A DNA stretch of 64,000 bases, taken from the IMG/VR virus record IMGVR_UViG_3300009610_000008, positions 918 to 64,917 of that record. One strand, written 5' to 3'. This document shows, in pieces, positions 1 through 63,401 of the stretch. The notes under the pieces are model-generated. The model did not search any database. It was not told the DNA's origin and saw nothing but the letters and a program-made list of their open reading frames with translations. The first letter of the stretch is position 1. The number at the start of each line of letters is the position of its first letter. This DNA is from a virus (Duplodnaviria > Caudoviricetes). The translations under genes were made by a program, and so were the position numbers.

Positions 1-175
1 TGACATTGGTGAAGGATGGCGTGGAGGTGGAGACCCACTTCGCCCCCCGTCCATACCCCAAGGGGAGTGCAGGGGACGACAGCATACAGTAACATGGGCT
101 GAGCACCGACCACGTGGATAGTGGATAGTTAGTAACCAACTACTGTCACCTATCCACACTGGTGGAGGTTCGACT

Positions 176-1375
176 ATGGCTAGACTAACGCAAGCAGACT
201 TACTGCACCAGTGGTGTAACCGGGGGGTAACTGAGCATCAACACTCGGGTAACCTTGCCATCACCACCAACGGCAGGGTAATGACCTACGATGGCACAGT
301 GGTAGGCGTGCATCTCAACATAGGCGGGGTACTAATCACACTCTATGCCGACTATGTGGACACCCCATCCCGCTCCCGTGTCTCACCCCACTGGATACCA
401 GGGGAGATACGGCGCGGCATGCCCACTGACCAGCATCATGCGGTGCGGGTATCCAAGCATGTCCTGGGGTACCAGTTGTACTGGCTCAATGGACGGGATG
501 ACCATGCATTACTACGCCACCTGGGGTATCGCATGGTGTCGCAATGGGGTGGGCTGGAGCGGGATGATGCCAAGCTGGCACGCATGAAGGGCAGGCGGTA
601 CGGCGCAATGGTTGCCCACCAGGGGGAATGCGAGGAACGGGCTGAGACGCTGGCCCGGCTGGACACTCTAACTAATGGCACGGTGGGTGAGTTGGCCACC
701 TATCGCAAGGCCCTGCTCGATTCACGATGGACAGACAGTGAGATGGAGGTGGCCAAGGTCTACAGCGACAAGTGGCAGGAGGTGGACAGTGACCGGGTCC
801 ACAGGCATGGGGCATTTGGCCGTGTCTCCTGGGAGGAACAGCAGCGGCGGCGTCGGCAACGTGACATAGAGAGGCAGGCCAAGGAGGAGAAGGACAGTGA
901 GTACTGGACAGCGGATCGCATTGCTGAACTCATCCAGCAGTGGAAGGCCGGGTCCAACAGTGGCCTGTCATACAGCAGTACTGTCCCCCAGTGGGTACTC
1001 ACCAGTGTCGGTGTGACTACCTATCTACGCATCGTAGGCAACGAGGTCGAGACATCACGTGGCGCACGCATAGGTATACGGGCGGCGGCACGGCTGTTGC
1101 AACTGTGTGATGCCACATGGGCAGGCGGGGTGGAGTTGGTCTACGACTATGCCAACCCCGGCCCACAGATTGGACCGTACCAACTGCAATGCATCACCAT
1201 GGACAAGGTCGTCATAGGATGTCATACTCTGTTACGCACCACCATCAATGAATTTAGACCCGTGTTCATGGAGCACGCGGCCAAGCTACGGCAACGGGAT
1301 GCGCGGGAAGATGACATCCTCGCCGAGGAACTGCGACCCATACTGGACACAGTGGACGGCGCGGTTAGTCACTAA
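176..1375 (+). CDS. Hypothetical phage early protein (399 aa)
   Basis: Long ORF with GGAGG SD. The C-terminal segment LRIVGNEVETSRGARI...IGPYQL...VIGCH resembles uncharacterised phage proteins. Its stop codon lies inside the palindrome at 1364. Confidence 0.8.
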   Translation: MARLTQADLLHQWCNRGVTEHQHSGNLAITTNGRVMTYDGTVVGVHLNIGGVLITLYADYVDTPSRSRVSPHWIPGEIRRGMPTDQHHAVRVSKHVLGYQLYWLNGRDDHALLRHLGYRMVSQWGGLERDDAKLARMKGRRYGAMVAHQGECEERAETLARLDTLTNGTVGELATYRKALLDSRWTDSEMEVAKVYSDKWQEVDSDRVHRHGAFGRVSWEEQQRRRRQRDIERQAKEEKDSEYWTADRIAELIQQWKAGSNSGLSYSSTVPQWVLTSVGVTTYLRIVGNEVETSRGARIGIRAAARLLQLCDATWAGGVELVYDYANPGPQIGPYQLQCITMDKVVIGCHTLLRTTINEFRPVFMEHAAKLRQRDAREDDILAEELRPILDTVDGAVSH

Positions 1376-1394
1376 CAACAAAGGAGAACATCAC

Positions 1395-1742
1395 ATGGAA
1401 AAGACATCACGACGCACCGCCAGTGCCACAATGGCTGACCCCAAGGCCAAGGAGCCGGTGCCCACCGAGGCCAGGGTCATTGCCCCGGATGGCACCATCA
1501 CTGAGGTGCAACCAGTCAATGGACATGACTTCAAGCTGGAGGAATTGTATACCCATACCCAGTCCACCACCGTCCAGATGATCGACATGCCCGACGGCCG
1601 CATCATGTGGATGGATGAGGAAGGGAAGTTGAATGGCAAACCACCAAACCCCACGGCTACTGCACTGGTGGCCAAGTGGCTAATGGCTGGTGATTACATT
1701 GCCGGTCATGCCCTGGTGTGTACGAAACGGATGGTGAGATAG
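1395..1742 (+). CDS. DUF3846-like phage protein
   Basis: AAGGAG SD before ATG 1395. The pattern VIAPDG...LEELY...MWMDEEGKLNGKPPNPTAT...YIAGHALV is typical of DUF3846. Confidence 0.75.
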   Translation: MEKTSRRTASATMADPKAKEPVPTEARVIAPDGTITEVQPVNGHDFKLEELYTHTQSTTVQMIDMPDGRIMWMDEEGKLNGKPPNPTATALVAKWLMAGDYIAGHALVCTKRMVR

Positions 1743-1780
1743 GCACCGTCGCACAGCAACCTATTGATTCGCAAGGAGAG

Positions 1781-2257
1781 ATGAACAACATGAAGAACAC
1801 CGCATCGACATCTAAACTATCCAACTTCCTGGCCGAGCTTAACCTCGTGCTGGCCGGTAGCCACAACCTGCCACTGGACGACGACTGCACTGGTGGCATT
1901 GCCATACTGGGCGAGGATGAGAAGTTGGTAGGCACTGTCCCAGAAGGGTTGACACGTGTCCTGTACCTTGTCTCACGGTACTACGATCTCCTCGCCGCCG
2001 AACACCACCTCGCCTATCAGTTCACCGCCGATGGCAGCAAAGCGGAGACTGTCGCCCAGTCTATGAGTATCCTGTGTAAGGAACGTGCCGACACCTACCG
2101 TGCCATGTTCTGGTGCAGTGTCCACGACACCTACCCCCCAGGTAAGGGATACCAGGGGTTGACACTGAGACAGGGGTGGGCAATCACTGAAACCCCCGAG
2201 GAGGATGCGACAACCATTGTGTCCCTACTCAATCTACTCAAGGGTGGAAGGAGGTGA
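1781..2257 (+). CDS. Hypothetical protein
   Basis: AAGGAG SD before ATG 1781/1790; fits operon packing. Confidence 0.7.
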   Translation: MNNMKNTASTSKLSNFLAELNLVLAGSHNLPLDDDCTGGIAILGEDEKLVGTVPEGLTRVLYLVSRYYDLLAAEHHLAYQFTADGSKAETVAQSMSILCKERADTYRAMFWCSVHDTYPPGKGYQGLTLRQGWAITETPEEDATTIVSLLNLLKGGRR

Positions 2258-2364
2258 TGGGATAGCGGACAACTAGCCAGTCACGAGGTGGTGTACTTGG
2301 GTCAACCGCTTGGTACACCACCGCCACCACCAATGATAATGAAACGCAAGGGAGTAAGCATTGT

Positions 2365-4230
2365 ATGGCATTGAAACTAAACAACAAGAGACAACAACAA
2401 CAACCAATCACCACAGTTAGTAACCAACCACCGGCTGACCGCTCGGCGGAGCTTGAGGGTCGCGACACCAGCAACGACGCCATCTACTGGCAGGCAGAGA
2501 TGCTCGACAGCTTGACACGGGAGATGCACGCCTCGATCCCCGCCATTACCTCTATCCGCTACGTGGCATTCGGCGCGGATGCACGTGACGAGGAACGTGA
2601 GAAGTTGCTCACCCTCATGGACCGGCCGAGGTTACAACTCACAGGCCAACAGCTTGCGGTACTCCGGGAGTTAGTCACTAACCCACGCCACATCATGGTA
2701 CGTGCACGCGCAGGCACGGGTAAGACTACCATGATCAATGAGTGCATTGCTTGGCTTGTCCTACTGGCACGGGCACGCGGCGCAGTGGCCCCAACGTATA
2801 GCGCACTCAGCTATCACCAGCTTGGCATCGAGTTTATGAGAGACAATGGCATCGAGGGGCGTGACATAGGCAGGCTCATCGAACTGGGCAAGAGCAATGC
2901 GGGTGGCATCTGGGCAATGCTTGACGCACTGGGTATCAAGGCCAACCCCAACGACGACCAGTTAACCAAGGCACGGGTACGGAAGTTACGTGTCAACCTG
3001 CGCCGCCTCCTTGGGTACTGCAAGAACGAGTGGCGCACCCCGACCGACGCCAATGTCAAGGCCCTATGTGACCGCTATGATGTGACACTGGACAACGGCA
3101 CACTAGACGAGGTGTGTGCTGCACTGCGGGAGTTGCTCGTCATGTCATTGGACCTACGCAAGTGGGGGATCGGCTTTGATGACCAACTCTGGTGGCAAGC
3201 GGAGACACGCGCCGAGTTGACCACTGCACCATCACTCGTATTCGTTGATGAGTACCAGGATACCAACCAACCCCAGGCCGAGATGGTGAGGAAGTTAGTA
3301 CTGGCCGGGGCACGGGTGGTGGTGGTAGGGGACGAGAGACAGGCGATCTTTGGATTCCGCGGAGCCGACACCCGTGCCATGGACAATGGGGAGGTACTGC
3401 TACGTGGCACCGATGATAGAGGGTTGACTGTACTGCCACTGACACAGACGAGGCGCTGTTCCGAGATGGTGGTGCGCCTCACCCAGGCGATAGTACCAGA
3501 CTTCGAATGCCTCCCCGGCACTGCCAAGGGTGGGCTGGGCGTGGTGCAGGACACTGAGCTAATCGCATGGCTGAAACCCGGTGACGTGGTACTCTGCCGC
3601 AACAACGCTGACTTGGTTGCACTCGCCTACAGGTTACTGTCTAAGTCAATCCCCTGCATGATCAAGGGGCGGGACATTGGCGATAAGCTATGCGACCTCG
3701 TCGATGAGGTCAACGCTGGTGGTGAACTGGGTAGGGTGGAGGAGTTTGGTATATCACTGCGGGATTGGTACATGGCCAAGCGGAAGCCACTGCTCATGGA
3801 GGGGGATGATGCCGAGCGACGCCTTGCCACCCTCCAGGACCAGTACGACTGCTTGAACATACTCGCAATGGAAGGCATGGACGCGGGTAAGATCAAGAAT
3901 ACAATACGCTTTGTCTTTGGCGACGGGGCAAGGAATGGGAAGGTAACACTCAGCACTGGCCACAAGTTCAAGGGCTTGGAAGTAGAGACAAGTGATAACA
4001 GACTGGTACTGCTACGCCCCGATAGGCTGGGGTTAACTGGCCGTAACCAGGAGGACACCATGCAGGAGAGCAATGTATTGAATGTCATGTTGACACGTGC
4101 CAAGGGTGGGCTGTACTTTGTCCCATTCGTTGGCAAGAAGGGCACGATGGTCACCATCCCACGGGTACTGGAGGGCCGGTGGTTGGAACTGATAGCCGAG
4201 ACAAAGGAGGTGATTGACAATGCCGATTGA
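2365..4230 (+). CDS. SF1 UvrD/Rep-like DNA helicase
   Basis: Walker A ARAGTGKT, Walker B FVDEYQD, motif III VGDERQAIFGFRGAD, IV LTQTRRC, V STGHKFKGLE, VI LTRAK. Confidence 0.92.
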   Translation: MALKLNNKRQQQQPITTVSNQPPADRSAELEGRDTSNDAIYWQAEMLDSLTREMHASIPAITSIRYVAFGADARDEEREKLLTLMDRPRLQLTGQQLAVLRELVTNPRHIMVRARAGTGKTTMINECIAWLVLLARARGAVAPTYSALSYHQLGIEFMRDNGIEGRDIGRLIELGKSNAGGIWAMLDALGIKANPNDDQLTKARVRKLRVNLRRLLGYCKNEWRTPTDANVKALCDRYDVTLDNGTLDEVCAALRELLVMSLDLRKWGIGFDDQLWWQAETRAELTTAPSLVFVDEYQDTNQPQAEMVRKLVLAGARVVVVGDERQAIFGFRGADTRAMDNGEVLLRGTDDRGLTVLPLTQTRRCSEMVVRLTQAIVPDFECLPGTAKGGLGVVQDTELIAWLKPGDVVLCRNNADLVALAYRLLSKSIPCMIKGRDIGDKLCDLVDEVNAGGELGRVEEFGISLRDWYMAKRKPLLMEGDDAERRLATLQDQYDCLNILAMEGMDAGKIKNTIRFVFGDGARNGKVTLSTGHKFKGLEVETSDNRLVLLRPDRLGLTGRNQEDTMQESNVLNVMLTRAKGGLYFVPFVGKKGTMVTIPRVLEGRWLELIAETKEVIDNAD

Positions 4231-5176: not shown

Positions 5177-5398
5177 TGGTTCACCACAATGCGAACACCG
5201 GTGGACAATCGACCACCTCAGCGGGGAACGTGAACGTTGTAGTAGTCCCGCCACCCACTACTGCGCGAATTGCGACAAAGCCCTCTGTCTCACCGACGTG
5301 CTGGTGTGCGGGGACTTTGGTTTCAATGGTGGTTGCGACGCCAAGTTGGGAGGTCGACCACTGTTGCCCCCGCCTGCGGGGCGGTTGGTGACTAACTG

Positions 5399-5457
5399 AA
5401 ATTTTATTTTACATTTTTCAGTTGACACGCCGCGTCAATCGTTGTATATTCAAATAG
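5399..5457 (+). promoter_or_regulatory. Sigma70 promoter with AT-rich UP element and overlapping TTGAC-N7-GTCAA inverted repeat
   Basis: TTGACA 5422-5427, 17-bp spacer, TATATT 5445-5450; AT tract 5399-5419; inverted repeat 5422-5438. Confidence 0.85.
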
Positions 5458-5681
5458 TGGCGCACGACTTCGCAACCCTCGCTCAACATATAGGAATATC
5501 CACTCGCCACCTATACCGCATACTCAATGAGGGTAGTAGACCTAGTGTCGCAGTGCTAGGCAGGTTGGCGGCAGCCATGGATGTAACCATGGATGAACTA
5601 TTGAACACTATAGACGGCGCGGCAGATGTACAGTTAAGGAAACGTGCTGGCCGTGGCAAGCGACGTAGAGTTAGTAACTAA
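5457..5681 (+). CDS. Small XRE/Cro-type HTH regulator, probably leaderless
   Basis: FATLAQHIGISTRHLYRILNEGSRPSVAVLGRLAAAMDVTMDEL is an HTH_3 pattern. GTG 5457 coincides with the predicted +1; the ORF-track TTG 5442 lies inside the promoter. Confidence 0.85.
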   Translation: MAHDFATLAQHIGISTRHLYRILNEGSRPSVAVLGRLAAAMDVTMDELLNTIDGAADVQLRKRAGRGKRRRVSN

Positions 5682-5707
5682 CCAATCAAGGAGAACAGTT
5701 AACTCGT

Positions 5708-6940
5708 ATGGCAACCGAACAAGTAGCAGTAACCAAGACACCCAAGGCCCCGCCCGTGGCACCATCCAAGGGCAGCAAGGGTACCACGGTGGACCTCACC
5801 GCCACACCCCTGGTCATCACCTCAGCCCAACAGTTGGACGTCAAATCCATTGTCCTGGTTGACAACCCCGGCCGAATGGATGGCGATAACAAGTTGGAGA
5901 CCCTACGCCATGCCATTGAGCAGGCTGGCCAAGTCCTCAACCCCATCACTATTAGACCTACCACCGAAGATGATGGCGACCTCCACGCTGATGGCAAGTA
6001 TGCAGTGGTAGATGGCAGACGACGCTTTCGATGCGCCAAGTCCATTGGATTCAAAACTGTACCCGTTGTCTTGTGGAACCCCGGCAAGGGCAAGGAGCGT
6101 ATCACCAGTGTGCAGGGTGCGATACTTGCCAACCTCGCCAACCGCTCTCTCACTGCCCCTGAAATGTTAAATGCATTCCTGGCCCTGGCTGACGACATGG
6201 ACTGGGATGTCAAGGTCCCCAAGCTGGGCGAGAAGGGCATTGGGACATGTGGCAAGGACGTCGAGAAGTTGGCCCGTTACACTGAGACATCCAAGGCCAC
6301 CATCTACAGGACATTACGTCTCGGTCTACTGGACAAGGACATCCTCAAGAAGGTCCACAACAAAGAAGTTGGTGCCGACGCCGCCCGTGACATGGGTGGG
6401 CTGGTGCAAAATGGGTACCTCACCGAGGAGCAGGCAACGCTTGTCTTCGAGGAAGCCCTGGACATGAATGCCAAGAAGGCGAAGATCGACAATCGCCGTG
6501 ACCCCAACGCCCCAGACACCCGTACCCCCGATCAAATACGGCTCGACAACCTGGAACGTAAGCGTAAGAAACTCAAGCGCGCCGCCGCCGCCAAGGCCAA
6601 CGGGGGTGGTGGTGAGGTTGAGGAAGAGGAGGTCATCGCAGTGTCAAAGGCTGACCTCAAAGTTGCTGCCGCCAAGCTGGAGAAGGAGGGGAAGTTGACC
6701 ACCAAGGCCAGTGCTGCTGTCGCTGAGGCCAGTGCCAAGGGTGCGGGGATCTCGGCTGATGCCAAGCAGATGGCCATGCGATTGAAACATCTCGATGACG
6801 TATGTGAGGATCTCATTAACGATGAAAATCCCCACATCGCCAAGCTGGGTGCGGCTCTCACCAAGTTCATGGAAGGACAACTCCTTGCCCCCGAGTTGGT
6901 GAAACAATTCGAGAAGCACTGCCTCCCCGCCACTGAGTAG
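5708..6940 (+). CDS. parB: ParB/Spo0J/KorB-family protein (ParB N-domain + HTH + K/A/E-rich tail)
   Basis: NPGR, VLNPITIRP, YAVVDGRRRFRCAK..G.KTVPV (GxxR motif), NLANRSLTAPE, then HTH-like VEKLARYTETSKATIYRTLRL; AAGGAG SD. Confidence 0.88.
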   Translation: MATEQVAVTKTPKAPPVAPSKGSKGTTVDLTATPLVITSAQQLDVKSIVLVDNPGRMDGDNKLETLRHAIEQAGQVLNPITIRPTTEDDGDLHADGKYAVVDGRRRFRCAKSIGFKTVPVVLWNPGKGKERITSVQGAILANLANRSLTAPEMLNAFLALADDMDWDVKVPKLGEKGIGTCGKDVEKLARYTETSKATIYRTLRLGLLDKDILKKVHNKEVGADAARDMGGLVQNGYLTEEQATLVFEEALDMNAKKAKIDNRRDPNAPDTRTPDQIRLDNLERKRKKLKRAAAAKANGGGGEVEEEEVIAVSKADLKVAAAKLEKEGKLTTKASAAVAEASAKGAGISADAKQMAMRLKHLDDVCEDLINDENPHIAKLGAALTKFMEGQLLAPELVKQFEKHCLPATE

Positions 6941-7058: not shown

Positions 7059-7089
7059 TAGTTAGTGACCAACAACTGGAGAACCAATC

Positions 7090-8386: not shown

Positions 8387-9049
8387 ATGACAATCAATCG
8401 AGACGAAGTACCAACAGTGGCAGAGCAAGTGTCCTCGCTGGAGAATGGGTATGCTGACCTGCTGTTGGAGAACAAGGCTCTTGGTGAGTCGATCCAGTTA
8501 CTAACCAAGCAGGTGCATGAACTGGAGGATCAACAGGCGATCACGCGGCAGGCATACCAGAACCTACTGGCTGAGAAGGATGGCACTATCGCTGGGCTGG
8601 ACGCCATTGTCGCCGAGAAGAACGCAGAGATCAAAGCCTGTCATGAGACGATCAGGCACAGCAACGAGACGATCAAGGGATTAGACGCGGCACTGGCCCA
8701 GGCGCGGGAATGCAATGCTCGGCTCGACCACCAGTTGGAACAGCAGGGTCGCCGCACGGCCACCAGTGTACGCATCGAGGGGTGGGATAAGCAGGACAAC
8801 ATGGTGAGGGCGAACAGCAGTACCTGCGACTGTGACCACCCAGGCCCGTTCGACAGCAACAACCACTGCGTCAAGTGTGGGCGCAAGTACAACGCACCCA
8901 ACCCTGGCCTCAAGTTTGGCGAGATCCAATTGGCCAAGCGCATCTACCATAACATCCACTACCCGGCGATACGGGCATTGCTTGGGTACGAGACGTGCCG
9001 CATACTGGACATCGTGCTGGACCTGGACCAGCCGGGGGTTAGTGACTAA
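8387..9049 (+). CDS. Coiled-coil protein with Cys-rich (zinc-ribbon-like) segment
   Basis: Heptad-rich N-half, CDC...HCVKCG; AAGGAG SD; stop lies inside the palindrome at 9038. Confidence 0.7.
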   Translation: MTINRDEVPTVAEQVSSLENGYADLLLENKALGESIQLLTKQVHELEDQQAITRQAYQNLLAEKDGTIAGLDAIVAEKNAEIKACHETIRHSNETIKGLDAALAQARECNARLDHQLEQQGRRTATSVRIEGWDKQDNMVRANSSTCDCDHPGPFDSNNHCVKCGRKYNAPNPGLKFGEIQLAKRIYHNIHYPAIRALLGYETCRILDIVLDLDQPGVSD

Positions 9050-9051
9050 CC

Positions 9052-9264: not shown

Positions 9265-10887
9265 ATGCCACTACTTACCCCATCTAAACTGGATCTCCCG
9301 CAGTTCGACAGTTGGCGGGACCAGCAACCCGGTGCCATTGTCGAACTCATCGAAGCCCTCACCCCACTAGACGATGGTGGTGGGGGCTATGATACTGCGG
9401 TACTACCCGACCAAGCAGGGTTTGGTAAATCTGGCGTCTACCTGGGCCTGTCCCAACTAATGCGCCGCAGCGGTAGTGTACGCCGCACCATCATCATGAC
9501 GCAATCCCGTGGCCTACAGGACCAGGTGGGCCGCGATGCGACATTTAGCCAGGACATGAAGGGCAGGGCAAATTATCCCTGTAAGTACAGCGGGTCGCGC
9601 ACCAAGTTCCTCACCTGCAAGACTGGGCCAGATCATGGGTGTGACGTAGGTGATACGTGTACCTACAACAATCGCAAGAACATCTGTGCCAACCACCACA
9701 CGGTAGTCACTAACTATGCCTGCCGCCTATCGATGTCACTGTATCCAAATGCTAAGGGTCTTGGTGACTTCGATCTCAATGTATTAGATGAGGCCCACTT
9801 AGTCCCAGATGAAATCACCCGTGCCCTAGCTGTCGAGCTGGATGGTGGCGAACAGGCCAGGGTACTGAATGACATAGACATGCCCACCCCCGCCACCCCC
9901 AACGGCTGGCAACCCGTCGCACGCAAGTGGCTGCACTGGTACGCCAGTGAGTACACCAGTATGGATGGCAATGGTGCTGTCCAGGACGACGCCGATAGTG
10001 AGGCCAAGGATCTCAAGGACAAGCTGGTCAAGGTCGCCACCTGTAGTGGGCATGAGAACTGGCTGACATACCACAAGGAAGGCGACGGCACCCTGTACAT
10101 GGACGTCATCTGGCCAGGGTTATATGCTAAGAGTGCCTTGTATCCAACTGGCAAGGTACTGCTCACCAGTGCGACCATTACAGCCAAGTCCCTGTCCCAG
10201 CTTGGCATAGCTAGAGACAAGGTCTACTGGCGTAACACTGGTGGGCAGTTTGATCCCCGGCGTTGGCCAGCAGTGTGGATCAAGACATGCCAAGTGAAAC
10301 AGTCCATGCCATCCCACGCCAAGTCTAAGTTACTCAACACCATTGATCAAATCATCCGCACCCGCGCCGTCGAGGGTAATCGCAATGGGATAATCATTAC
10401 GCCCAGTTACGATCTGGCCAAGTGGATTAAACAGGAGTCAATGTATGGACAACGCATTGTCGTGCCTACAACCGCTACTACCCGAATGGAGGTGGACAGG
10501 TTCAAATCCCCCACATCTCTACACCGTGGGGCAGTTCTGTGTAGTCCCGCTATCGGCACAGGTTATGACTTCCCAGGGGACACTAGTAGGTGGGTTATTG
10601 TTCCTAAAGTTCCATACACGTACCATGGAGATCCACTGACGCGAGCTAGACAGGAACGGGATGGGCGTTACAGTGATGGGCTGGTGGCACAGGAGTTGGC
10701 CCAGATGGTGTCACGTTGTATGCGGGGGCCAGCCGACTGGTGTGAGGTGTTTGTGCTGGATGACCTCATCGCCCCGTTCCTCAATAGAAATAGGGATCTA
10801 ATGGTGGACTGGTTCCCCTTGTTTGAACATCGTGGTATACGCAGTGTCGACTGGTTGCCCAAGCTGATGGAGGTGCCAAGTGCCTAG
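9265..10887 (+). CDS. SF2 DinG/XPD-like helicase (Fe-S cluster type)
   Basis: Q-motif WRDQQ, AGFGKS, KGRANYPC plus three further Cys, LDEAH, TSAT, GTGYDFPGD, PKVPY, QMVSRCMR. Confidence 0.9.
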   Translation: MPLLTPSKLDLPQFDSWRDQQPGAIVELIEALTPLDDGGGGYDTAVLPDQAGFGKSGVYLGLSQLMRRSGSVRRTIIMTQSRGLQDQVGRDATFSQDMKGRANYPCKYSGSRTKFLTCKTGPDHGCDVGDTCTYNNRKNICANHHTVVTNYACRLSMSLYPNAKGLGDFDLNVLDEAHLVPDEITRALAVELDGGEQARVLNDIDMPTPATPNGWQPVARKWLHWYASEYTSMDGNGAVQDDADSEAKDLKDKLVKVATCSGHENWLTYHKEGDGTLYMDVIWPGLYAKSALYPTGKVLLTSATITAKSLSQLGIARDKVYWRNTGGQFDPRRWPAVWIKTCQVKQSMPSHAKSKLLNTIDQIIRTRAVEGNRNGIIITPSYDLAKWIKQESMYGQRIVVPTTATTRMEVDRFKSPTSLHRGAVLCSPAIGTGYDFPGDTSRWVIVPKVPYTYHGDPLTRARQERDGRYSDGLVAQELAQMVSRCMRGPADWCEVFVLDDLIAPFLNRNRDLMVDWFPLFEHRGIRSVDWLPKLMEVPSA

Positions 10888-11185
10888 TTATGTCGCCTAC
10901 TGGCGTGCGATTAGTAAACAGGCAGTCCACCGTGGTGATGAGACCCCCATGGGGATTGGCAAGTCGTCACCATTTAGTCACCGGGAGGATGCCGAGAAGT
11001 GGTTGGATGCAATATGTCATGAGTACCACACTGACCCAGCTCACGTGGCCGAGGGTGTGTCCTGCATTGGGCAGATAGTCGCCACTACCATCCCACCACT
11101 AGTGATCAGGCATTGTCATACCCTGGTACTGGTGGACAACCGGTGCCCGAAGTGCAACTCGTTAGTGACTAACCGCGACCGTTGA
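10880..11185 (+). CDS. Hypothetical protein with C-terminal CxxC
   Basis: GGAGG SD, GTG start overlapping the helicase stop. Confidence 0.6.
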   Translation: MPSYVAYWRAISKQAVHRGDETPMGIGKSSPFSHREDAEKWLDAICHEYHTDPAHVAEGVSCIGQIVATTIPPLVIRHCHTLVLVDNRCPKCNSLVTNRDR

Positions 11186-12333: not shown

Positions 12334-12360
12334 TGCATAGCAGTTAGTCACTAACCACAT

Positions 12361-12868: not shown

Positions 12869-13087
12869 ATGGAACCCATCATGCAGTTCTTTGCCTACGC
12901 CCACCTACCGGCCCATCTCCAGGAGGTGAGTGCGCCATTCGGTGTACTCGCCGAGACCATTGTCAACATGTTGCCTCGTAACCCCGAGCGCACTGTGGCA
13001 TTGCGTAAGTTGCTCGAAGCCAAGGACGCAGCAGTACGCGCGCGGCTATACACCGATGACGGCTACTCAAAAGTGCCGGGTAGTTAG
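12869..13087 (+). CDS. Small conserved helical-hairpin phage protein (possibly Acb2/Tad1-like fold)
   Basis: FFAYAHLP...LPRNPERTVALRKLLEAKDAAVRA; AAGGA SD. Confidence 0.6.
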   Translation: MEPIMQFFAYAHLPAHLQEVSAPFGVLAETIVNMLPRNPERTVALRKLLEAKDAAVRARLYTDDGYSKVPGS

Positions 13088-13113
13088 TCACTAACGCCAC
13101 ACAGGGGGACAGA

Positions 13114-13848
13114 ATGAAAGTAGTACTAGTAGAAACCATACCAACCGTCAACCCTGTCCCCTACACCTACACGCCATACGCCATCCGCAGTGGTGGGTGG
13201 CACATGAAGGCAGTACTCCAAGCCATTGGTGAACAAGCCGGTCTACTCGACCCATGGGAACGCCCCGCCAGTGGGTGGAGTGAGACCAGCGGTGATGATG
13301 GCAATGGCGGGGTGGGTGTCGCCTGTACCTGGGCCGCGCCCCTCTGGCCATTGATGGGCCTCGCCTGGGAGGCAATGATATTACCGGCCACTGCCCCCAA
13401 TGGCCACCCCATACCAGAACAGTCATACGAATTTGACTGCGGCGAGACGGTGTACTTTAGTCCAGACTGGGCCGTGAAACTTGACGAGTGGCCAGTCGAT
13501 GGCAAGTTAGTCACTACCGGTCGTCGCCGTGTCCCCTGCCTCGACGAATGCAAATGCACCTGGAGGAGTGCCAATAAAACAATCGCCGACTGGTGGCTAG
13601 CCATTACTCAACTCAAGTCGTACTGCATGGCCATGGGGGTATTTCGTGGGCGTCTCACTGTCGTCTATGTCAATGGGCATTATGAGAAAAACGTCGTGGG
13701 TGTACCAGTACTGAAACGTCATTGGATCGAGTTCACCCGCGCAGACTTCGATATGCAAGAGGAACTAATAAACACGTGGCTACAAGAACGCGCAACACTA
13801 CGCAAGGCTTTTCACAATCATCGGCGGCAACGAGTGACACTAGACTAG
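13114..13848 (+). CDS. PD-(D/E)xK exonuclease (Cas4/RecB-like)
   Basis: GLAWE, SPD, LDECKCTW, QLKSY motifs. Confidence 0.8.
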   Translation: MKVVLVETIPTVNPVPYTYTPYAIRSGGWHMKAVLQAIGEQAGLLDPWERPASGWSETSGDDGNGGVGVACTWAAPLWPLMGLAWEAMILPATAPNGHPIPEQSYEFDCGETVYFSPDWAVKLDEWPVDGKLVTTGRRRVPCLDECKCTWRSANKTIADWWLAITQLKSYCMAMGVFRGRLTVVYVNGHYEKNVVGVPVLKRHWIEFTRADFDMQEELINTWLQERATLRKAFHNHRRQRVTLD

Positions 13849-14834: not shown

Positions 14835-15225
14835 TAGTTCACCATCATTACCACCGTCACCGCCAACACGTGAACTAACACTGGATGAGTTCGACAACCT
14901 AGTGGTACTACTCTACGCCGACCCCACCAAGCCCACAGTGGGTTATCTCGCCGACTACTTGGGGGTGGGTTACAGTGTCGTCTACCGGGCATTGAAACGC
15001 CAGGGAGTGCGCCGTCGCCTGCAAGGCCCATCGAGGGTTGACTTCATACCGGGGAGTAAGAGTGCCAAGGCCGCCACGCTGTTGGTCACTAACTCGTATC
15101 GCAAGAAGAGTGATCCACAGTGGGTGTCGCAAGCAAAGATAGCTAGACAGGTTGGATGTACCAGGGAGCTGGTCAAGAAGGTGCTGGACAAACTTAGAGA
15201 GCGAGGAAGGATAACCAACAAATGA
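14821..15225 (+). CDS. HTH DNA-binding protein (two HTH-like segments)
   Basis: TVGYLADYLGVGYSVVYRALKRQG and SQAKIARQVGCTRELVKKVL. Confidence 0.75.
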   Translation: MMTSSSSPSLPPSPPTRELTLDEFDNLVVLLYADPTKPTVGYLADYLGVGYSVVYRALKRQGVRRRLQGPSRVDFIPGSKSAKAATLLVTNSYRKKSDPQWVSQAKIARQVGCTRELVKKVLDKLRERGRITNK

Positions 15226-17419: not shown

Positions 17420-17443
17420 TGACTAACAAAGGAGTACAGAACT

Positions 17444-47049: not shown

Positions 47050-47106
47050 AATGTGTCTCTGTTCTCCTTGATACTTAGTCACTAACTGTCGCTTACTGTA
47101 ACACGA

Positions 47107-49654: not shown

Positions 49655-49673
49655 GTGGTCTCCTTGTTAGTGA

Positions 49674-51485: not shown

Positions 51486-52115
51486 TTAGTCACTAACTGG
51501 TGTGACATCAATTATACCTTTGACCCCCGATGCACGTAACGTCCCACCGGCTTGTTGGACGAGTTCGAGGAGCCGTAACTTCAGGTCGTCGGTGGAGAGG
51601 GCGGCTAGTTTGTCGCCGATTTCGTGCTCGACAACAGCCTTGGATGGGTGGTTGGCACCGAGGACATCGAGTAGTTTGGCTGCGGCCATTGTCCTAGTTC
51701 TATGATCGGCTGTGAAATGGGGGTTGCCACCCCTGTCATAGGTCACACGCTCGGCAATCATGGCGTCGTCCAGGACAGCGAATGCCCGTGCAATACGTAC
51801 CCCAACGAGTGCCGCCACCTCCTGGGCCTTGAGGAACATGGCACGTTCCATGGTGGCCTGGGCGACCAGACGTCCATTGCGAATACGTTCACGTAGATAA
51901 GTGGAGAGTTCGGCTTCTGGGATACGAAAGCGGATGGCGAGGGCGGCGATGTATTCGTCAATGTTATCGGCGGCTGGCGGGTAGGCGGCAGTGAAGTCGT
52001 CAATGGTGCGTGACCACCTGGGACTAGATGACCCCACTGCCTTACCCGCCCCGTTGGTGGACACCGTGGGGGAGGTGACCAGGAGAGAGTTACGAGAGTT
52101 GAGTTTAAGTGCCAT
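51486..52115 (-). CDS. Putative terminase small subunit
   Basis: Immediately upstream of TerL; helical; DHRTRTMAAAKLLDVLG...LSTDDLK. Confidence 0.65.
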   Translation of the reverse strand: MALKLNSRNSLLVTSPTVSTNGAGKAVGSSSPRWSRTIDDFTAAYPPAADNIDEYIAALAIRFRIPEAELSTYLRERIRNGRLVAQATMERAMFLKAQEVAALVGVRIARAFAVLDDAMIAERVTYDRGGNPHFTADHRTRTMAAAKLLDVLGANHPSKAVVEHEIGDKLAALSTDDLKLRLLELVQQAGGTLRASGVKGIIDVTPVSD

Positions 52116-52138
52116 GCGGTGGACCACTTAGTGACTAA

Positions 52139-52579
52139 CTATGCCGATTTGCCAAATACAAGCTCCTGGTGAACCACCATCCGTGGGCCAAGTTCCACCT
52201 CACCAGTGCCGACATCATACATATAAGTACGGCCATACATGTCGGGGCCTTGCGAGTAGGCGACGTGGGTGGGGGTGATGGCTTCGATCTCGCAGTAGTC
52301 GTACATCCCACTGCACATCTCGCCATTCCCATTGCCATTCTTGCCCTTGGCCTTTTTAGACTTCGCCTGGGCGCGTGCCTCCTCCATCAGGGCCTCCTGG
52401 ACTTTAGCGGTCTTGGTGGCCTGATTCTCCTTGTCGGTGATGCGGACCCCGTTGGACGCATTGCTGGTGGAGGCACGCTTGGCCTCACGCCGTTCATTGC
52501 TGTACACCTCGGCCTTGGACCCAGTGGGCTTGAGACCCATGTACAGCACTTTCTCGTTCATGTCCATTTTGCTGGGCAT
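52139..52579 (-). CDS. Hypothetical protein
   Basis: GGGAG SD before ATG 52579; downstream of a promoter. Confidence 0.65.
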   Translation of the reverse strand: MPSKMDMNEKVLYMGLKPTGSKAEVYSNERREAKRASTSNASNGVRITDKENQATKTAKVQEALMEEARAQAKSKKAKGKNGNGNGEMCSGMYDYCEIEAITPTHVAYSQGPDMYGRTYMYDVGTGEVELGPRMVVHQELVFGKSA

Positions 52580-52691: not shown

Positions 52692-53051
52692 CTATGCCGG
52701 GTTAGTGACCAACTCCAGTTTGGGATGGCGCAATTGGAATACCAGATTCACTAACCATGCGGCATCGGCGACACGCACGGGGGTGGCGGTTTCGATAGCG
52801 GCGGCAAGTGCAGCGGTTTCATCAACTTCCAGGTTGACGTCGCGGGTGCCGTAGCCGTTGGGCATTTGTTGCCAACTGTACTGCTGGCCAACAATGGTGA
52901 ACCCAGTCTCCACCTGTTCCTGGTCGGTCAGGCGCACCTTGTCGAGGATACGTAAATAGATACTCGCGTCCTTGAGGCTGGTGGCGTTGTGGTTGCCCAC
53001 CATGTTCCACAGGATGATGCGCTGGGGGAAGGTGACGGTGATGGACTGCAT
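52692..53051 (-). CDS. Hypothetical protein (possible fibre chaperone)
   Basis: Follows the fibre gene; TAATG coupling. Confidence 0.6.
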   Translation of the reverse strand: MQSITVTFPQRIILWNMVGNHNATSLKDASIYLRILDKVRLTDQEQVETGFTIVGQQYSWQQMPNGYGTRDVNLEVDETAALAAAIETATPVRVADAAWLVNLVFQLRHPKLELVTNPA

Positions 53052-55353: not shown

Positions 55354-55524
55354 GTTAGTAACTAACCGGTGCTATCGTCGCTTATTGTACTACGCCGGTC
55401 CACTGGTCGCCCGTCGACAGGACAAGATGGAAGAGAGATCCTGCCGTAACCGAGTGGACCGGCGTGTAGTTGGCCAGTGTGGTCGTCCACTCCAACACTG
55501 GCCAAGATGGTGACTAGTAAGTGA

Positions 55525-56332: not shown

Positions 56333-56865
56333 CTGAAACCGGCGGCTTTTAGTTCTGCGTTGCGTTGCTGGAAGGCGGCGGCGTCACCGTCCTTGTCGTA
56401 GTCGAATGCCCACCACCCGGCACTGTACACTTCATACAAGCTGGAGCCGTTAGTGACTAACAGCCAGAACTGTGGGACAGTGACGTAGCCATCTGGGGTC
56501 GGGGCGTAGATGTCGAATATCAACTGCGGCCAGTAGTTCCTGGCCCACTGTAGTACTGCGTCTGCCGTCTCGGGGGTGCAGTAGTCAACTGGGTTAAGGG
56601 GGTAGACGGGACGTTCAAAGCTGTAGCCTAAATTCACACTCCAGGGCCGCTCAAATGTCGATGGACCCACTGGTTGGAGGTTGTTGACATAGTAGATGCA
56701 CTTGGTCACCGGGCTGTAGAGGTAACCGGGCATGGCGCGGACGAGGATTTTGGATAGGTCGATGGCGCGGGCGACAGCCTGCTGGTTGGGGGCAACGCCC
56801 TGAGGACCGGGTGCCGCAGGCACAGTAACAGTAGATGGTGTAGATGGCGTAGATGAGGTAGACAT
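56326..56865 (-). CDS. Hypothetical protein, first gene of the leftward structural operon
   Basis: AGGAGAAC SD. Confidence 0.7.
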   Translation of the reverse strand: MSTSSTPSTPSTVTVPAAPGPQGVAPNQQAVARAIDLSKILVRAMPGYLYSPVTKCIYYVNNLQPVGPSTFERPWSVNLGYSFERPVYPLNPVDYCTPETADAVLQWARNYWPQLIFDIYAPTPDGYVTVPQFWLLVTNGSSLYEVYSAGWWAFDYDKDGDAAAFQQRNAELKAAGFSV

Positions 56866-57058: not shown

Positions 57059-57088
57059 ATGGTAGCAGATGTTGACGTGGCGTGTCAA
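57059..57088 (-). promoter_or_regulatory. Putative structural-operon promoter with TTGAC-N7-GTCAA inverted repeat
   Basis: On the - strand: TTGACA 57088-57083, 18-bp spacer, TGcTACCAT ending at 57059. The 17-mer is 16/17 identical to 5422-5438. Confidence 0.75.
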
Positions 57089-58920: not shown

Positions 58921-59205
58921 TTTGTCAAAACCGGAAAAACACAGTACTGTGTGTCTTATATTTCTTCAAAGTATATACTGTGTATTACTGGATTTGAGAC
59001 GATGTATATGAAAACATTGGGGTTAGGTGCGATTTTGAAATGTTTTGAATTGGGGCAAATGGACGGTTTGGGCCGACGTTGGCGCAGGACGTAAAAATGA
59101 CCATTCCGTGTAGGGGAGTACGTGGGATGGTGGAAAATGGTCGTCCTGGGTCAATTGTGTGGGTTTTCGCCATATATTCGCCCCTTGTTAGTCACTAACC
59201 GCCCG

Positions 59206-59454
59206 TTAGTCACTAACTTTCGACATAATTTCCCGTATTTGCGCCATAATCTGGTCCGGGGTCAGCATCCGCGCCCTCGATTTTGCCACTAATGTACGAA
59301 TTTGCTGTATTGCCCACAACTTCTGGTCCACTTTTGGCCGTTTCCCCAACTTATTGTAGTCAACGTTCATCCAGATGCCATATTTTGGCTCTGGTGTCGG
59401 GTTCACTGTCACCTCGTAGCCTGCAATCCACGGTTTCAGCGGTATTTTTGCCAT
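59206..59454 (-). CDS. Small hypothetical protein
   Basis: 82-aa ORF whose stop lies inside the palindrome at 59205. Confidence 0.55.
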   Translation of the reverse strand: MAKIPLKPWIAGYEVTVNPTPEPKYGIWMNVDYNKLGKRPKVDQKLWAIQQIRTLVAKSRARMLTPDQIMAQIREIMSKVSD

Positions 59455-60195
59455 GTTTCCATTATACCATATTTAATTATGGTGGCAAACGTTTGAAAAT
59501 TGGTCTCGTTCAGAATCCCGTATGGGACCCAGTGGCCCCGCCCCCTGGCCACGTCGGGGTGGTGGTGGTCACCCCATGTGAGGGTATCGCCGTGTCCCGT
59601 ATGGGGGTATCGACAGGCAGTACGTACCAAGAAACGGCCGATGTCAACGTCGTCCACATTAGAGAATGCGATTTTGTGGCGTCCTTTATATAAGGTTTGC
59701 CCCCATTATTGCCCAATTGTCGAAATAGCCTAGGATCATCCGGTAGACATTGGCACGTACCTTGGGACGGTGGCAGAATCAGCCGCGCTAAATTGATCCT
59801 AGGCGCAATGACGGCATATGTGGACGTTGTCAACTTTCGAGCATTTTTGACCGCGCTATATAAAGGTTGCGCTGGCCGCACTGGCCGCTAATCGTTAGTC
59901 ACTAACCTATAGCTATCGCTTATGGGGTATCGCTGGCCGCTATGACACTGTCTATAGGATGTTGCGCTACCACATGCGAAATGATCAATTAAGTACCCCC
60001 CGCTACAACATATTGTCTTCATTACACTTGCCAGTACCGCCTATTGGACGTCGATGTTGACACTGTCCACAATAATACTTTATTTGCCTTGTTATCATAC
60101 ACTTACGATGGGTACTGAATTATTTGTTTTACATCTCTAAAAAATTATGGTTAGATAGTTATGTCAGTTCGATGTTTGATAGCTTAACGGTTCGA

Positions 60196-60894
60196 TGGCG
60201 CGGGGGGACGCAAGTCCCGCGTAAGGCGCGATTGAGACCGCGGGAAACGGTCCCGCGTTAGGCTAATTTGGCTGATAGATCTTTGACATATTCGACGTAT
60301 CAAGCGAGAATCCAAACGGGCGTTAGCTAGGTAACCTAGCCATAGTCAATACGCAACCATGTGGGAGTAAGGCGGACGGTAGTCAATCCGTTGTCGGTCT
60401 AGTTAGGTCTCGTAGGCCACCTTGTAGGGCGGTACGTTTAGGAGCGACTGCGGAAAACGTCACGTGAACTGTCGAGACGATAGTTTAGAGACGCGACGGT
60501 CGCAAAGGTTAAATGACATAAGCTAGTCGACGATACGTGTGTCCGAAACTCTAGCTGGTAGGCGTGGAATTAGTATATCTCCCATCCATAGCCCTAGCAA
60601 TGACGGCGCGGCATACGTTGTCCCTAACAATTCCAGCGTATTGGTATGACCACTGGTAGGCGCGTCGATGCTTGAGCGAACGGTCAGTGGTAAAACGATT
60701 TAGTGGCCTAGGGTGCGTCCGCCGATACACCCATGGTTTCACAACATAGACAATACCGCCTGACGGTTAGTCACTAACGAACAGAACGCGATAACTCCGC
60801 GAGAGTTGCGTCCCTGCGACGGTGGCTAGGCATGTCGGGCGGTACGGCTATGGCGATATAGATGCTATAAGTGTATCTGTACCGCCATAGCCGT
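60196..60894 (+). ncRNA. Candidate large structured non-coding RNA or structured early leader
   Basis: No credible ORF; nested long-range stems and GNRA hairpins (see findings); boxA-like GATCTTTGACA at 60278-60288. Confidence 0.6.
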
Positions 60895-62010: not shown

Positions 62011-62111
62011 GCGGACAGCTAGTAGGCAGGGCGAATGCGACAATCGTATCGCCCTGGCCCGTTAGCTGGGTTAACCCCAGTGATATCAACAACTTAGGAG
62101 AGAACCAATCC

Positions 62112-62399
62112 ATGCGATACTTCAACTCGCTCATCCGGGCCATGGCCTACGCGACAGTCGCCACCTATGCCTTGTACACAGTAGGCGACATGCATACCAA
62201 GCATCTCGCGGTCGAACTGGCCGACATCCAGGCCAAGGCCGACCAAGTACGGTACGACAGTGAGTTTGCCGTGACCCTCGGTGGCTGCGCAACCGACACC
62301 GAGTGTGCCATGGCGGAAGCCGCTGCTGTCAAGGCTGTGGCTAAAGAGCGTAGCCTGGGTAGCAACGGTGGTGGCGGACGGCTAATGGCTGGACGATAG
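62112..62399 (+). CDS. Small membrane-anchored early protein
   Basis: AGGAGAACCAATCC-ATG; N-terminal hydrophobic segment. Confidence 0.65.
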   Translation: MRYFNSLIRAMAYATVATYALYTVGDMHTKHLAVELADIQAKADQVRYDSEFAVTLGGCATDTECAMAEAAAVKAVAKERSLGSNGGGGRLMAGR

Positions 62400-62488
62400 A
62401 CTGCTAGGATTCACGGTCAATGCCTTACCGGGTAGTGACCGTGTCCCTTAGTTGGCTGACGTCAACGACATGCAAGGAGAACTAGACT

Positions 62489-62971
62489 ATGACAATGCAA
62501 CAGGCCGCTCAACAGGCCATCGACATACAGGACGCCTGTAACCTGTCGGGTGTGGTGTACAGTTTCGCTCGGGTAATGGACACGCTCTGTGCCAACACCA
62601 CGGCCACCCGTGACAGGAATAGCCATCCCATCGTGACGATGTTTCTGCTCAAGCTGTGTGAACTCAATGGCTGCGGCAGTACCCTGCACGAGACCTATGA
62701 GGCGGCAGAGAAGGCGTGCCATGAACTGGCGCAGTCAACTGGGGATGGGCATCACCACTACGAGGTTGTAGTGAGCAACATTGGCCACGTCTACAACGGC
62801 ATGGACCAGGGGATAGCCGAGACCAAGTACGACAGCTATGTCAAGCTCAGTGCCGCCGGGTATGGCATCACTGGGTACGAGCATGTAACCATGCTGCGGG
62901 ATGGCGACGTGGCCAAGGACTACGACGGCGGGGAACAGCGGTTGATAGACATCGAGAGCCGCATGGAGTAG
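62489..62971 (+). CDS. Hypothetical early protein
   Basis: AAGGAGAAC SD. Confidence 0.7.
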   Translation: MTMQQAAQQAIDIQDACNLSGVVYSFARVMDTLCANTTATRDRNSHPIVTMFLLKLCELNGCGSTLHETYEAAEKACHELAQSTGDGHHHYEVVVSNIGHVYNGMDQGIAETKYDSYVKLSAAGYGITGYEHVTMLRDGDVAKDYDGGEQRLIDIESRME

Positions 62972-63071
62972 CGTAGCGCAGACAACTAGACAGCGCATGG
63001 GTAGTGACAGTATCCATGCTCTGGCGTAGCTGCCTGGGATACAGGGACAGTGACAAGGGAGAACTAAACAC

Positions 63072-63323
63072 ATGGATTACGGTGATTGGGAAGACGCGAT
63101 CAGGGATCTGGATGACCCGCAACTGGCGGATGTCATCAAGGCAATAGCCACACTGCGGGACTGGCCTGTCTTCTATCAGGAGTTCAAGGGACTAGGCACA
63201 TTCGGCTTGCAGGTACCGCTACTCTACGAGGCGGAACGCAGGCGTCGCGCGGAGATGCCATTGGGTAGCCCCAAGCGGTACTTCGACTCGCAGTTCATGG
63301 AGTTCCGCGACGTGACCAGCTAG
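63072..63323 (+). CDS. Hypothetical early protein
   Basis: GGGAGAAC SD. Confidence 0.65.
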   Translation: MDYGDWEDAIRDLDDPQLADVIKAIATLRDWPVFYQEFKGLGTFGLQVPLLYEAERRRRAEMPLGSPKRYFDSQFMEFRDVTS

Positions 63324-63401
63324 TCTACAGCCAACAGGGTGCATGAGTTAGTGACTAACAACCACTGGATCATGTACCCGATTGGAAGGAGAACTAGACA
63401 T

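Follow-up and report, generated by a model that had tools for sequence, protein, structure and literature searches.

A genome-wide array of 13-bp palindromes in an uncultured phage, with an orphan ParB-fold protein as the best candidate for its reader

What reads a short palindrome that recurs some 50 times along a phage genome, and why have its copies been kept? The question is raised by a 64,000-nucleotide window (bases 918 to 64917; the whole stretch of DNA analyzed here) of the IMG/VR record IMGVR_UViG_3300009610_000008, an uncultured groundwater/sediment phage whose 64,917-bp record has a 108-bp terminal repeat and is rated complete. The 13-bp element GTTAGTNACTAAC (GTTAGT-N-ACTAAC) is present in 27 perfect copies, where 100 dinucleotide shuffles averaged 0.01 and never exceeded 1, and in 50 copies (27 plus 23) when one mismatch is allowed (shuffle mean, 0.10). 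A first-pass annotation made from the sequence had reported at least 27 perfect and about 23 single-mismatch copies between positions 128 and 63359, and the chance expectation that it gave, 0.004 perfect copies at uniform composition, is correct as arithmetic (64000/4^12). We predict that these dyads are, very probably, double-stranded DNA sites for a phage-encoded dimeric DNA-binding protein. The best candidate for their reader is a ParB-fold protein encoded at 5708-6940, which we give about an even chance of filling that role.

The copy number falls sharply beyond the first mismatch, with 27, 23, and 6 copies at zero, one, and two mismatches in the complete 64,917-bp record; since the first two counts equal those of the window, the 917 bases outside it contribute no copy. 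A reversed-pattern control gave no matches. The half-sites GTTAGT and ACTAAC form inverted pairs with a 1-base spacer 27 times and none with spacers of 0 or 2 to 8 bases, and there is a single everted pair and no direct one. Half-sites outside the perfect copies number 40 against 25.8 expected from composition, each of the 23 one-mismatch copies holding one of them, and isolated half-sites are not clearly enriched. Across the 50 copies the information content is restricted to the 12 fixed positions, the center base being C in 25, G in 20, A in 3, and T in 2. The sole signal in the flanks is an A at position -1 in 26 of 50 copies, and an extended form of the motif was rejected because the flanks lack information content. 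An exact dyad with fixed spacing points to a dimeric protein on duplex DNA.

The copies lie in early, replication, and structural modules alike, as first annotated, and are spread over all three strand blocks of the genome (plus strand from 1 to ~23.4 kb, minus strand from 23.5 to 59.1 kb, and plus strand again from 59.2 kb). The mean density is about one copy per 1.3 kb and the largest gap is 3.2 kb. The genome-wide tiling at that interval has statistical support, in that the coefficient of variation (CV) of the gaps is 0.66 compared with 0.97 for random positions (P = 0.001); it is 0.63 for the copies at junctions compared with 0.99 for a random choice of junctions (P = 0.007), and 0.55 in the related genome G001 described below. 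On a list of 75 genes curated by hand, with approximate starts, 33 of 74 gene junctions hold a copy; 36 of the 50 copies are outside genes and 14 are intragenic, two of the latter (11161 and 39611) at a gene edge. The motif carries its own stop codons (TAG at positions 3 to 5, TAA at 10 to 12, and TGA if the center is G), leaving one open frame per strand, in which the intragenic copies read L-V-T-N. These stop codons, together with very short intergenic gaps, account for the junction bias, and a copy supplies the stop codon of 15 of the 75 genes. At most junctions the next start codon follows within 0 to 36 nt, sometimes with a Shine-Dalgarno (SD) sequence between copy and start, although there is none at 9038, 21816, 40297, 42604, and 55354. 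The noncoding early region holds four perfect copies, two of which are 18 bp apart where the strand blocks diverge.

Such placement could also be expected of an element acting on RNA or expression, be it a cassette for stopping and re-initiating translation, a processing hairpin, or a promoter used by a phage polymerase: most copies are outside genes, 15 genes end in one, and many start codons come soon after a copy, several without an SD sequence. We consider this highly improbable. Both arms are exact, including the invariant positions 6 and 8 that a hairpin would place in its loop, and the potential stem has just five AU-rich pairs. In the transcribed orientation the pairing-breaking change T10>C (A.C) is seen six times and the G.U-compatible change A4>G four times, and none of the six two-mismatch copies has a compensatory change. 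An RNA-level role would also have to accommodate the 12 to 14 intragenic copies, several of them conserved, the perfect copies in noncoding early DNA, including the tandem pair, and a distance from copy to start codon that varies from 0 to 79 nt. The RNA hairpin was accordingly rejected on its mismatch pattern, invariant loop positions, and weak stem. Also rejected were a T7-type polymerase promoter, PF00940 not being found although the control for that profile was silent everywhere, and a methylation target of a phage methyltransferase, for which the families PF01555, PF02086, and PF00145 are absent.

The complete syntenic relative G001 (67,145 bp, ~74% nucleotide identity to the window phage record, G000) has 39 perfect and 8 one-mismatch copies, so that one-mismatch copies make up 8 of 47 there and 23 of 50 in the window phage, and 12 of the latter correspond to perfect copies in G001. 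Of 28 window copies within BLAST alignments to G001, 19 are kept at no more than one mismatch, and four more (128, 1364, 44161, and 51485) are kept but shifted by alignment gaps. A looser, flank-anchored mapping, with some wide tolerances, pairs 36 of the 47 G001 copies with window copies. In the 25 copies with fully aligned flanks, the 12 fixed bases are identical at 264 of 300 positions (88%), as against 475 of 750 (63%) for the 30 flanking bases and 15 of 25 (60%) for the center (Fisher P = 1e-16). The array is under strong purifying selection on its 12 fixed bases.

Could the repeats instead be short linker homologies, by which related phages exchange modules? One gene does fit that idea. 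The 72-aa gene at 12869-13087, which ends in a motif copy, belongs to the replication block in the window phage, and its counterpart in G001 (65310-65482) is in the structural block, codirectional with its new neighbors. Synteny with G001 is otherwise kept, however, and the copies are conserved in place; 13 bp is very short for homologous exchange, and neither the strict dyad nor the even spacing would be explained. The authors who described the Cluster O mycobacteriophage repeats report, in the available text, few if any rearrangements at those repeats (PMC4351075). We regard exchange by linker homology as extremely unlikely.

How far the array extends beyond these two genomes bears on whether the phage or its host owns the reader. 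A scan of IMG/VR with a 14-base form of the motif found at least 117 stretches; among the matches listed, every compared locus with at least three copies either has 70 to 80% identity to G000 or G001 or is almost the same as G001, and the array-bearing loci thus constitute one clade with several lineages. An alignment-based terminase search recovered 17 loci at 84 to 90% identity (including L153 and L165), all with 2 to 15 copies, whereas the 63 loci with a terminase no more than 43% identical have neither a motif copy nor an array of their own. A candidate repeat in one of these searches (L221) was rejected, as it amounts to two terminator-like hairpins. Three further records (G002 to G004) are near-identical pieces of G001, and one of them, G003, labeled a provirus in IMG/VR, was rejected as such because it duplicates part of G001 at 99.6% and has no host flank.

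In principle such sites could recruit or titrate a protein of the host, for instance a nucleoid protein, a global regulator, or a dimer of the LexA or SlmA type. GTTAGT may be similar to the SlmA site and to the LexA boxes of some phyla, which would fit a host reader. A host reader appears improbable, given that the array is limited to one phage clade and absent from the 63 more distant loci, that no copy occurs in 744 kb of assorted unrelated bacterial DNA (none of it known as the host's), and that at least three conserved helix-turn-helix (HTH) proteins are the phage's own.

Of these HTH proteins, the 410-aa product of 5708-6940 is the one that we prefer as reader. The first-pass annotation called it a ParB-family HTH protein with no ParA, and both parts of that description are upheld, Pfam, profile, AlphaFold2 (AF2), and Foldseek results agreeing on a ParB-CTPase fold with an HTH. 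It matches Pfam ParB_N (PF02195) at 4.6e-9 and 36.6 bits (cutoff, 26.3), and a profile search of solved structures gave Noc at 1.4e-15, ParB at 6.5e-14, and KorB at 1.9e-4 (chain 8qa8). In the AF2 model (pLDDT, 82.6) the HTH is predicted at about 185-207 (helices 185-192 and 196-207), and the C-terminal part is helical, confidently all-helical over 314-405, a segment for which we saw no match to the known ParB or KorB C-terminal domain. The N-terminal domain and HTH match Noc, ParB, and KorB in Foldseek (E values of 1.6e-9 to 1e-7 over alignments of 203 to 261 columns), the best target TM-score being that of the KorB-KorA-DNA complex (chain 8qa9_B, TMt 0.67). The arginine patch (box II, GxxRxxA) is DGRRRFRCAK at residues 102-111, which aligns to AGERRWRAAQ of Caulobacter ParB, and across 70 homologues G103 and R106 do not vary, while R105 is kept in at least 90%. 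The ParA families PF13614 and PF01656 were not found in six frames, with positive controls in 14 of 14 genomes, and the protein lacks the ParA-binding motif [LFI]G[KR]G[LFI], as defined in the available text of PMC12704722. No tyrosine integrase was found in the phage genome, serine recombinases being outside that search. On its fold and arginine patch, its NCBIfam scores below cutoff, and the lack of a ParA-binding motif, a ParA, and a tyrosine integrase, the protein is, by sequence and model, an orphan and divergent member of the ParB-CTPase class rather than a KorB, a Noc, or a partition ParB. Orphan ParB-CTPase proteins are reported as common on mobile elements and phages in the available part of PMC12704722.

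Close relatives of the protein are few. A word-based search found seven proteins, all at least 63% identical, and a full HMMER search gave 78 matches, among which the only full-length kin beyond its own cluster are P0008 (43%), encoded on a 30,302-bp Logan contig, and P0009 (33%). The recognition helix of P0008 is QATIYRHLR, that of the window protein KATIYRTLR. Neither was found in viral contigs or in the cultured-phage collection, and metagenome and genome scans for further ParB relatives returned only close kin or generic ParBs. Among these kin, Pfam HTH_ParB matches P0009 at 7.3e-5 and 23.3 bits, above the cutoff of 22.6, and P0008 at 0.004 and 17.7 bits, below it.

The first-pass annotation described the palindrome as KorB-operator-like. 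RK2 carries 12 KorB operator (OB) sites, each 13 bp long, in 60 kb. In the available text of PMC11790492 the OB oligonucleotide contains TTTAGCGGCTAAA and the KorA operator (OA) is TGTTTAGCTAAACA. The motif shares 9 of 13 letters with TTTAGCGGCTAAA, or 4 of 6 per half-site, for which the chance is ~0.04 per comparison; the match is thus real but weak and near chance level, and it applies to OA too, so that operator likeness does not favor a ParB over a small HTH protein. The protein is also nearer to Noc and ParB (1e-15 and 6e-14) than to KorB (1.9e-4), and the broader term "ParB/Noc/KorB class" should replace the KorB label. The two systems nevertheless have several things in common, including a ParB-CTPase-fold protein with an HTH, a short dispersed palindrome, a replicon of ~60 kb (silenced at a distance by KorB), and a small HTH protein encoded just upstream with its own palindromic operator at promoters. 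KorB is described in the available part of the same paper as a CTP clamp that is locked by KorA at promoters (PMC11790492). They differ in that the KorB system has a ParA (IncC) and partitions its plasmid, whereas the window phage has no ParA; the KorB system has far fewer sites, and the window protein has no KorB-type domain by sequence.

That small upstream protein, a 74-aa XRE/Cro-type HTH_3 protein, is also the first of the rival readers. It and parB are predicted to be expressed from one sigma-70-like promoter (TTGACA-17-TATATT), the expected transcription start of which coincides with the GTG start of the HTH_3 gene, a leaderless arrangement. Over the -35 box lies a 17-bp palindrome, TTGACACGCC(G/A)CGTCAA (TTGAC-N7-GTCAA), which is kept in G001. 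It has two perfect copies in the window, and in each genome the second is over another promoter-like site. From its location we think that this palindrome is probably the operator of HTH_3 itself, and that HTH_3 is for this reason less likely to read the 13-mer. G001 also carries a copy of the 13-mer upstream of the HTH_3-parB promoter. A complex prediction with ParB residues 38-265 and HTH_3 scored 0.00, gave no verdict, and was not used. The other named rival is the 134-aa two-HTH protein encoded at 14821-15225, the model of which has no fold match at an E value of 0.001 or less; its weak matches are to bipartite HTH proteins (sigma, paired-domain, and transposase HTH pairs).

It is unlikely, although to be taken seriously, that the 13-mer is read by HTH_3, by the two-HTH protein, or by a family-less phage protein as a roadblock or silencer akin to a palindromic stoperator, with ParB otherwise employed. 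Both HTH proteins occur in every lineage and their HTH segments do not vary, palindromes of this length are typical targets of XRE dimers, the motif copy within the two-HTH gene is kept in four of four lineages, most early proteins have no Pfam family, and the operator of KorA, a small HTH reader, resembles the motif about as much as that of KorB does. But HTH_3 has a plausible operator over its own promoter, the two-HTH protein seems to be a bipartite monomer, which fits an exact dyad less well, and it is the ParB family, with Noc and KorB, that is known as a class for reading tens of dispersed palindromes (in part from the available text of PMC11790492). We prefer ParB because its family is known for many dispersed palindromes and HTH_3 is seemingly tied to its own operator.

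Among solved structures, Noc of Bacillus subtilis (PDB 7ol9 and 7nfu), which binds NBS sites, is the best match to the window ParB in sequence and fold. Like the window protein it is an orphan, a ParB paralogue that has no ParA, and it reads tens of dispersed palindromes, but it is chromosomal and the window protein falls well below the cutoff of the Noc model. Noc also targets the membrane through its N-terminus and takes part in cell division. Against a canonical ParABS system, the window ParB has no TIGR00180 score above cutoff, no ParA gene, and no ParA-binding motif. The stoperators of Cluster A mycobacteriophages resemble the array in being tens of 13- to 14-bp sites in short intergenic gaps, genome-wide and away from promoters (in part from the available text of PMC4351075). 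They are, however, asymmetric, oriented with transcription, and recognized by the immunity repressor in temperate phages, whereas the window array consists of exact dyads, with inverted half-sites only at the 1-base spacer, in a phage in which no tyrosine integrase was found.

The closest published precedent is the 17-bp palindrome of the Cluster O mycobacteriophages, TGTTCGGNNNCCGAACA, of which more than 30 copies occur throughout genomes that are not obviously temperate, with a function left unexplained and a dimeric DNA-binding protein predicted as the reader in the available part of the paper (PMC4351075). The features that mark it, more than 30 exact palindromes genome-wide (Corndog, ~70 kb), mostly off promoters, and a phage not obviously temperate, are found in the window phage as well. 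Many copies are intergenic in both, with about a third of the Cluster O copies in genes according to the same available text, and in both there is no ParA and a ParB_N protein is present. We counted 34 copies of its own palindrome in Corndog, and gp90 of Corndog has ParB_N (Pfam, 2.7e-6). The two arrays differ in geometry (7-N3-7 in Cluster O and 6-N1-6 here), in sequence, and in host phylum, and the Corndog copies crowd toward one genome end whereas those of the window phage are evenly spread. There is no significant pairwise similarity between gp90 and the window ParB (E value of 0.11), and gp90 is not linked to the repeats by the Cluster O authors in the available text (PMC4351075).

How a ParB reader might use the array can be set out only conditionally, and the identity of the reader, its use of CTP, its sliding, and the biological purpose of the array are things that we infer. 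Some 50 sites are kept by selection at near-even 1.3-kb intervals round the genome, placed where they cost least, either at junctions, with their own TAG, TAA, or TGA as the stop, or in the L-V-T-N frame within genes. Dimers of ParB, with its N-terminal arginine-patch domain, HTH, and helical C-terminal part, would dock at each site and, if the protein is ParB/Noc/KorB-like, CTP binding, clamp closure, and sliding would follow. With a site each 1.3 kb, the clamps could form a continuous protein coat over the genome, which might block or time transcription by the host polymerase in a stoperator- or KorB-like manner, or organize or shield the DNA. Taken as a whole, the picture of a lytic phage in which orphan ParB clamps load at ~50 dyads and slide into a continuous self-marked filament, with transcription timed or silenced or the DNA shielded or compacted, and with the XRE protein as a KorA-like clamp lock, is a tentative and rather doubtful one.

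Several observations weigh against ParB as the reader or against its acting as a clamp. Its NCBIfam scores are 44.5 bits for TIGR00180 (ParB; cutoff, 58.45) and 41.8 bits for TIGR04285 (Noc; cutoff, 315), and ParB_N is its only Pfam match at an E value of 0.001 or less, with no KorB-domain match. Box III reads ANLANR where ENLQR is expected, with N142 kept and E and Q replaced (the homologue P0008 has ENIGRR), and the CTPase chemistry may therefore differ. Other ParB_N loci lack a repeated palindrome (none of three viral and none of 11 metagenome loci has one), so the ParB fold alone is no predictor of an array. Array and ParB occur together in all three complete kin genomes searched (G000, G001, and G005), as the first-pass annotation would have it, but no relative with another motif or lacking parB was found, and since all array genomes are in one clade the co-occurrence represents a single evolutionary event. 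Identity across lineages is 77 to 80% for ParB (in G001, L022 to L025, and G005), 72 to 92% for HTH_3, and 52 to 70% for the two-HTH protein; all three are present in every lineage and keep identical recognition helices, and because the motif is likewise identical in all lineages, covariation cannot name the reader. Five one-mismatch intragenic copies (2416, 9702, 13506, 21090, and 22206) are not kept in G001, and some weak copies may thus be decaying or inert. The site density of one per 1.3 kb is also far above what a sliding clamp should need.

Phage palindrome arrays (stoperators and Cluster O repeats) and ParB clamps at dispersed palindromes (KorB and Noc) are each already known, and we found no paper in the literature searched in which the ParB of a phage is tied to palindromes arrayed along its whole genome. 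The window phage provides an unusually clean case, with a strict dyad, even spacing, selection on exactly 12 bases, and an orphan ParB whose arginine patch is intact. If binding by ParB is true, it would suggest a function for many orphan phage ParB-fold proteins and for the Cluster O repeats; and if the same mechanism holds for the latter, this would amount to a widespread, hitherto undescribed way for phages to control their genomes.

Table 1. Palindrome copies, candidate readers, and related elements in the window
Feature	Position	Strand	Context
1-mismatch copy	128..140		35 nt upstream of ATG of 176-1375; matching place occupied in G001
Perfect copy	1364..1376		Stop of 176-1375; next ATG 18 nt on; kept in G001
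1-mismatch copy	2416..2428		Within helicase ORF 2365-4230; not kept in G001
Perfect copy	2670..2682		Helicase gene, L-V-T-N just before Walker A; 1-mismatch in G001
1-mismatch copy	5384..5396		Stop of 5176-5391; ~25 nt before -35 box of HTH_3-parB promoter
TTGAC-N7-GTCAA palindrome	5422..5438		Over -35 box; probable HTH_3 operator; kept in G001 at 52726
74-aa XRE/Cro-type HTH_3 protein, GTG start	5457..5681	+	Rival reader or KorA-like partner
Perfect copy	5670..5682		Stop of HTH_3 gene, parB ATG 25 nt on; kept in G001
410-aa orphan ParB-CTPase-fold protein, central HTH (predicted)	5708..6940	+	Best candidate reader
1-mismatch copy	7061..7073		After parB, 16 nt upstream of ATG of 7090-8370; perfect in G001
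Perfect copy	9038..9050		Stop of 8255-9049; ATG 1 nt on, no SD
1-mismatch copy	9702..9714		Within 9265-10887; 2 mismatches in G001
Perfect copy	11161..11173		End of 10880-11185, then noncoding stretch with direct repeats; kept in G001
Perfect copy	12343..12355		After 11359-12333; kept in G001
Perfect copy	13083..13095		Stop of 12869-13087; gene elsewhere in G001
1-mismatch copy	13506..13518		Within 13114-13848; not kept in G001
134-aa two-HTH protein	14821..15225	+	Rival reader
1-mismatch copy	15081..15093		Within two-HTH gene; LLVTN kept in 4/4 lineages; perfect in G001
Perfect copy	17415..17427		Stop of 16970-17419; kept in G001
1-mismatch copy	19215..19227		Within UDG-exonuclease gene; perfect in G001
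Perfect copy	20567..20579		Stop of 20401-20571
1-mismatch copy	21090..21102		Within 20965-21531; not kept in G001
1-mismatch copy	21520..21532		Stop of 20965-21531; perfect in G001
Perfect copy	21816..21828		Stop of 21626-21820; PolA ATG immediately after
1-mismatch copy	22206..22218		Within PolA gene; not kept in G001
Perfect copy	23353..23365		After PolA, end of plus-strand block; kept in G001
1-mismatch copy	24318..24330		Between 24341-27842 and PEP-CTERM gene
1-mismatch copy	27500..27512		Within 24341-27842; no mapped G001 counterpart
Perfect copy	27857..27869		Between 27883-29436 and 24341-27842
1-mismatch copy	29448..29460		Junction 29470-32304 / 27883-29436; G001 copy nearby
1-mismatch copy	32397..32409		Gap 32305-32645
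1-mismatch copy	32611..32623		Gap 32305-32645
Perfect copy	32856..32868		Within 32646-34862
Perfect copy	33762..33774		Within 32646-34862, Pro-rich stretch
Perfect copy	36522..36534		Junction 36552-38255 / 34862-36511
1-mismatch copy	38292..38304		Junction; copy in G001
1-mismatch copy	38586..38598		Stop of 38594-39673
Perfect copy	39611..39623		Junction 39637-40293 / 38594-39673; kept in G001
Perfect copy	40297..40309		Stop of 40298-40555; ATG 3 nt on; kept in G001
Perfect copy	42604..42616		ATG of 40515-42599 4 nt on; kept in G001
1-mismatch copy	44161..44173		16 nt before ATG of 43419-44144; perfect in G001
Perfect copy	45758..45770		Stop of 45766-47082, upstream of major capsid gene; kept in G001
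1-mismatch copy	47074..47086		Junction; perfect in G001
Perfect copy	49666..49678		Stop of terminase gene 49674-51485; kept in G001
1-mismatch copy	51485..51497		Stop of 51486-52127, adjoins terminase ATG; perfect in G001
1-mismatch copy	52127..52139		Junction; copy in G001
1-mismatch copy	52701..52713		Between 52692-53051 and 52139-52621; perfect in G001
Perfect copy	55354..55366		ATG of 53353-55353 immediately after; copy in G001
Perfect copy	56449..56461		Within 56326-56865; 1-mismatch copy in G001
Second TTGAC-N7-GTCAA copy	57072..57088		Over minus-strand promoter-like site
Perfect copy	59187..59199		First of tandem pair 18 bp apart, divergent control region
Perfect copy	59205..59217		Second of tandem pair
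Perfect copy	59894..59906		Noncoding early region
Perfect copy	60766..60778		Noncoding early region
Perfect copy	63347..63359		Junction 63072-63323 / 63339-63836; kept in G001

The G+C content of the window is 54 to 61%. The first plus-strand block codes for a UvrD-type helicase, an M15 peptidase, the XRE HTH protein, ParB, a second helicase, a MazZ-like protein, an ERCC4 nuclease, a UDG-exonuclease, and a separate PolA. The minus-strand block includes capsid, terminase, and tail-fiber-like proteins, the majority of its products being without a family, and the second plus-strand segment consists of small early open reading frames (ORFs) without families; Pfam families are missing for most early proteins. 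The cultured-phage collection contained no similar DNA and no match to the terminase or to a 786-aa structural protein, and querying it with ParB gave five matches, weak and partial.

Many metagenome runs from groundwater, freshwater sediment, sediment, and soil contain near-identical phage DNA (sampled over 40000-49999), with at least half of the sampled words found in 17 run rows, the source sample possibly among them. There was no RNA run among the sequencing runs listed as containing phage DNA. In four DNA runs aligned to 36500-56499 the phage is present with strain variation, and two of the runs gave pieces with zero differences. None of 40 listed variable places (of 258 in that interval) is in a motif copy, which is uninformative because only ~0.4 would be expected.

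A few other features of the genome deserve mention. Directly after the motif copy at 11161, the noncoding stretch at 11175-11215 holds three ~11-bp direct repeats (CGTTGACGCAA-like), possibly an element of an origin or a promoter. The family A DNA polymerase is divided between two genes, one with UDG and 3'-5' exonuclease domains (18145-19614) and the other with the polymerase (21829-23346), and ~2.2 kb of small genes lie between them. The product of 15222-15731 has a MazZ-like N-terminal dATP/dGTP diphosphohydrolase domain (PF18909) at a borderline 27.1 bits (cutoff, 27), and none of the scanned proteins resembled PurZ. Lastly, the minus-strand gene at 23508-24326 codes for a 272-aa protein that ends in a PEP-CTERM sorting motif (Pfam, 2.9e-7), which hints at a Gram-negative, exosortase-bearing host.

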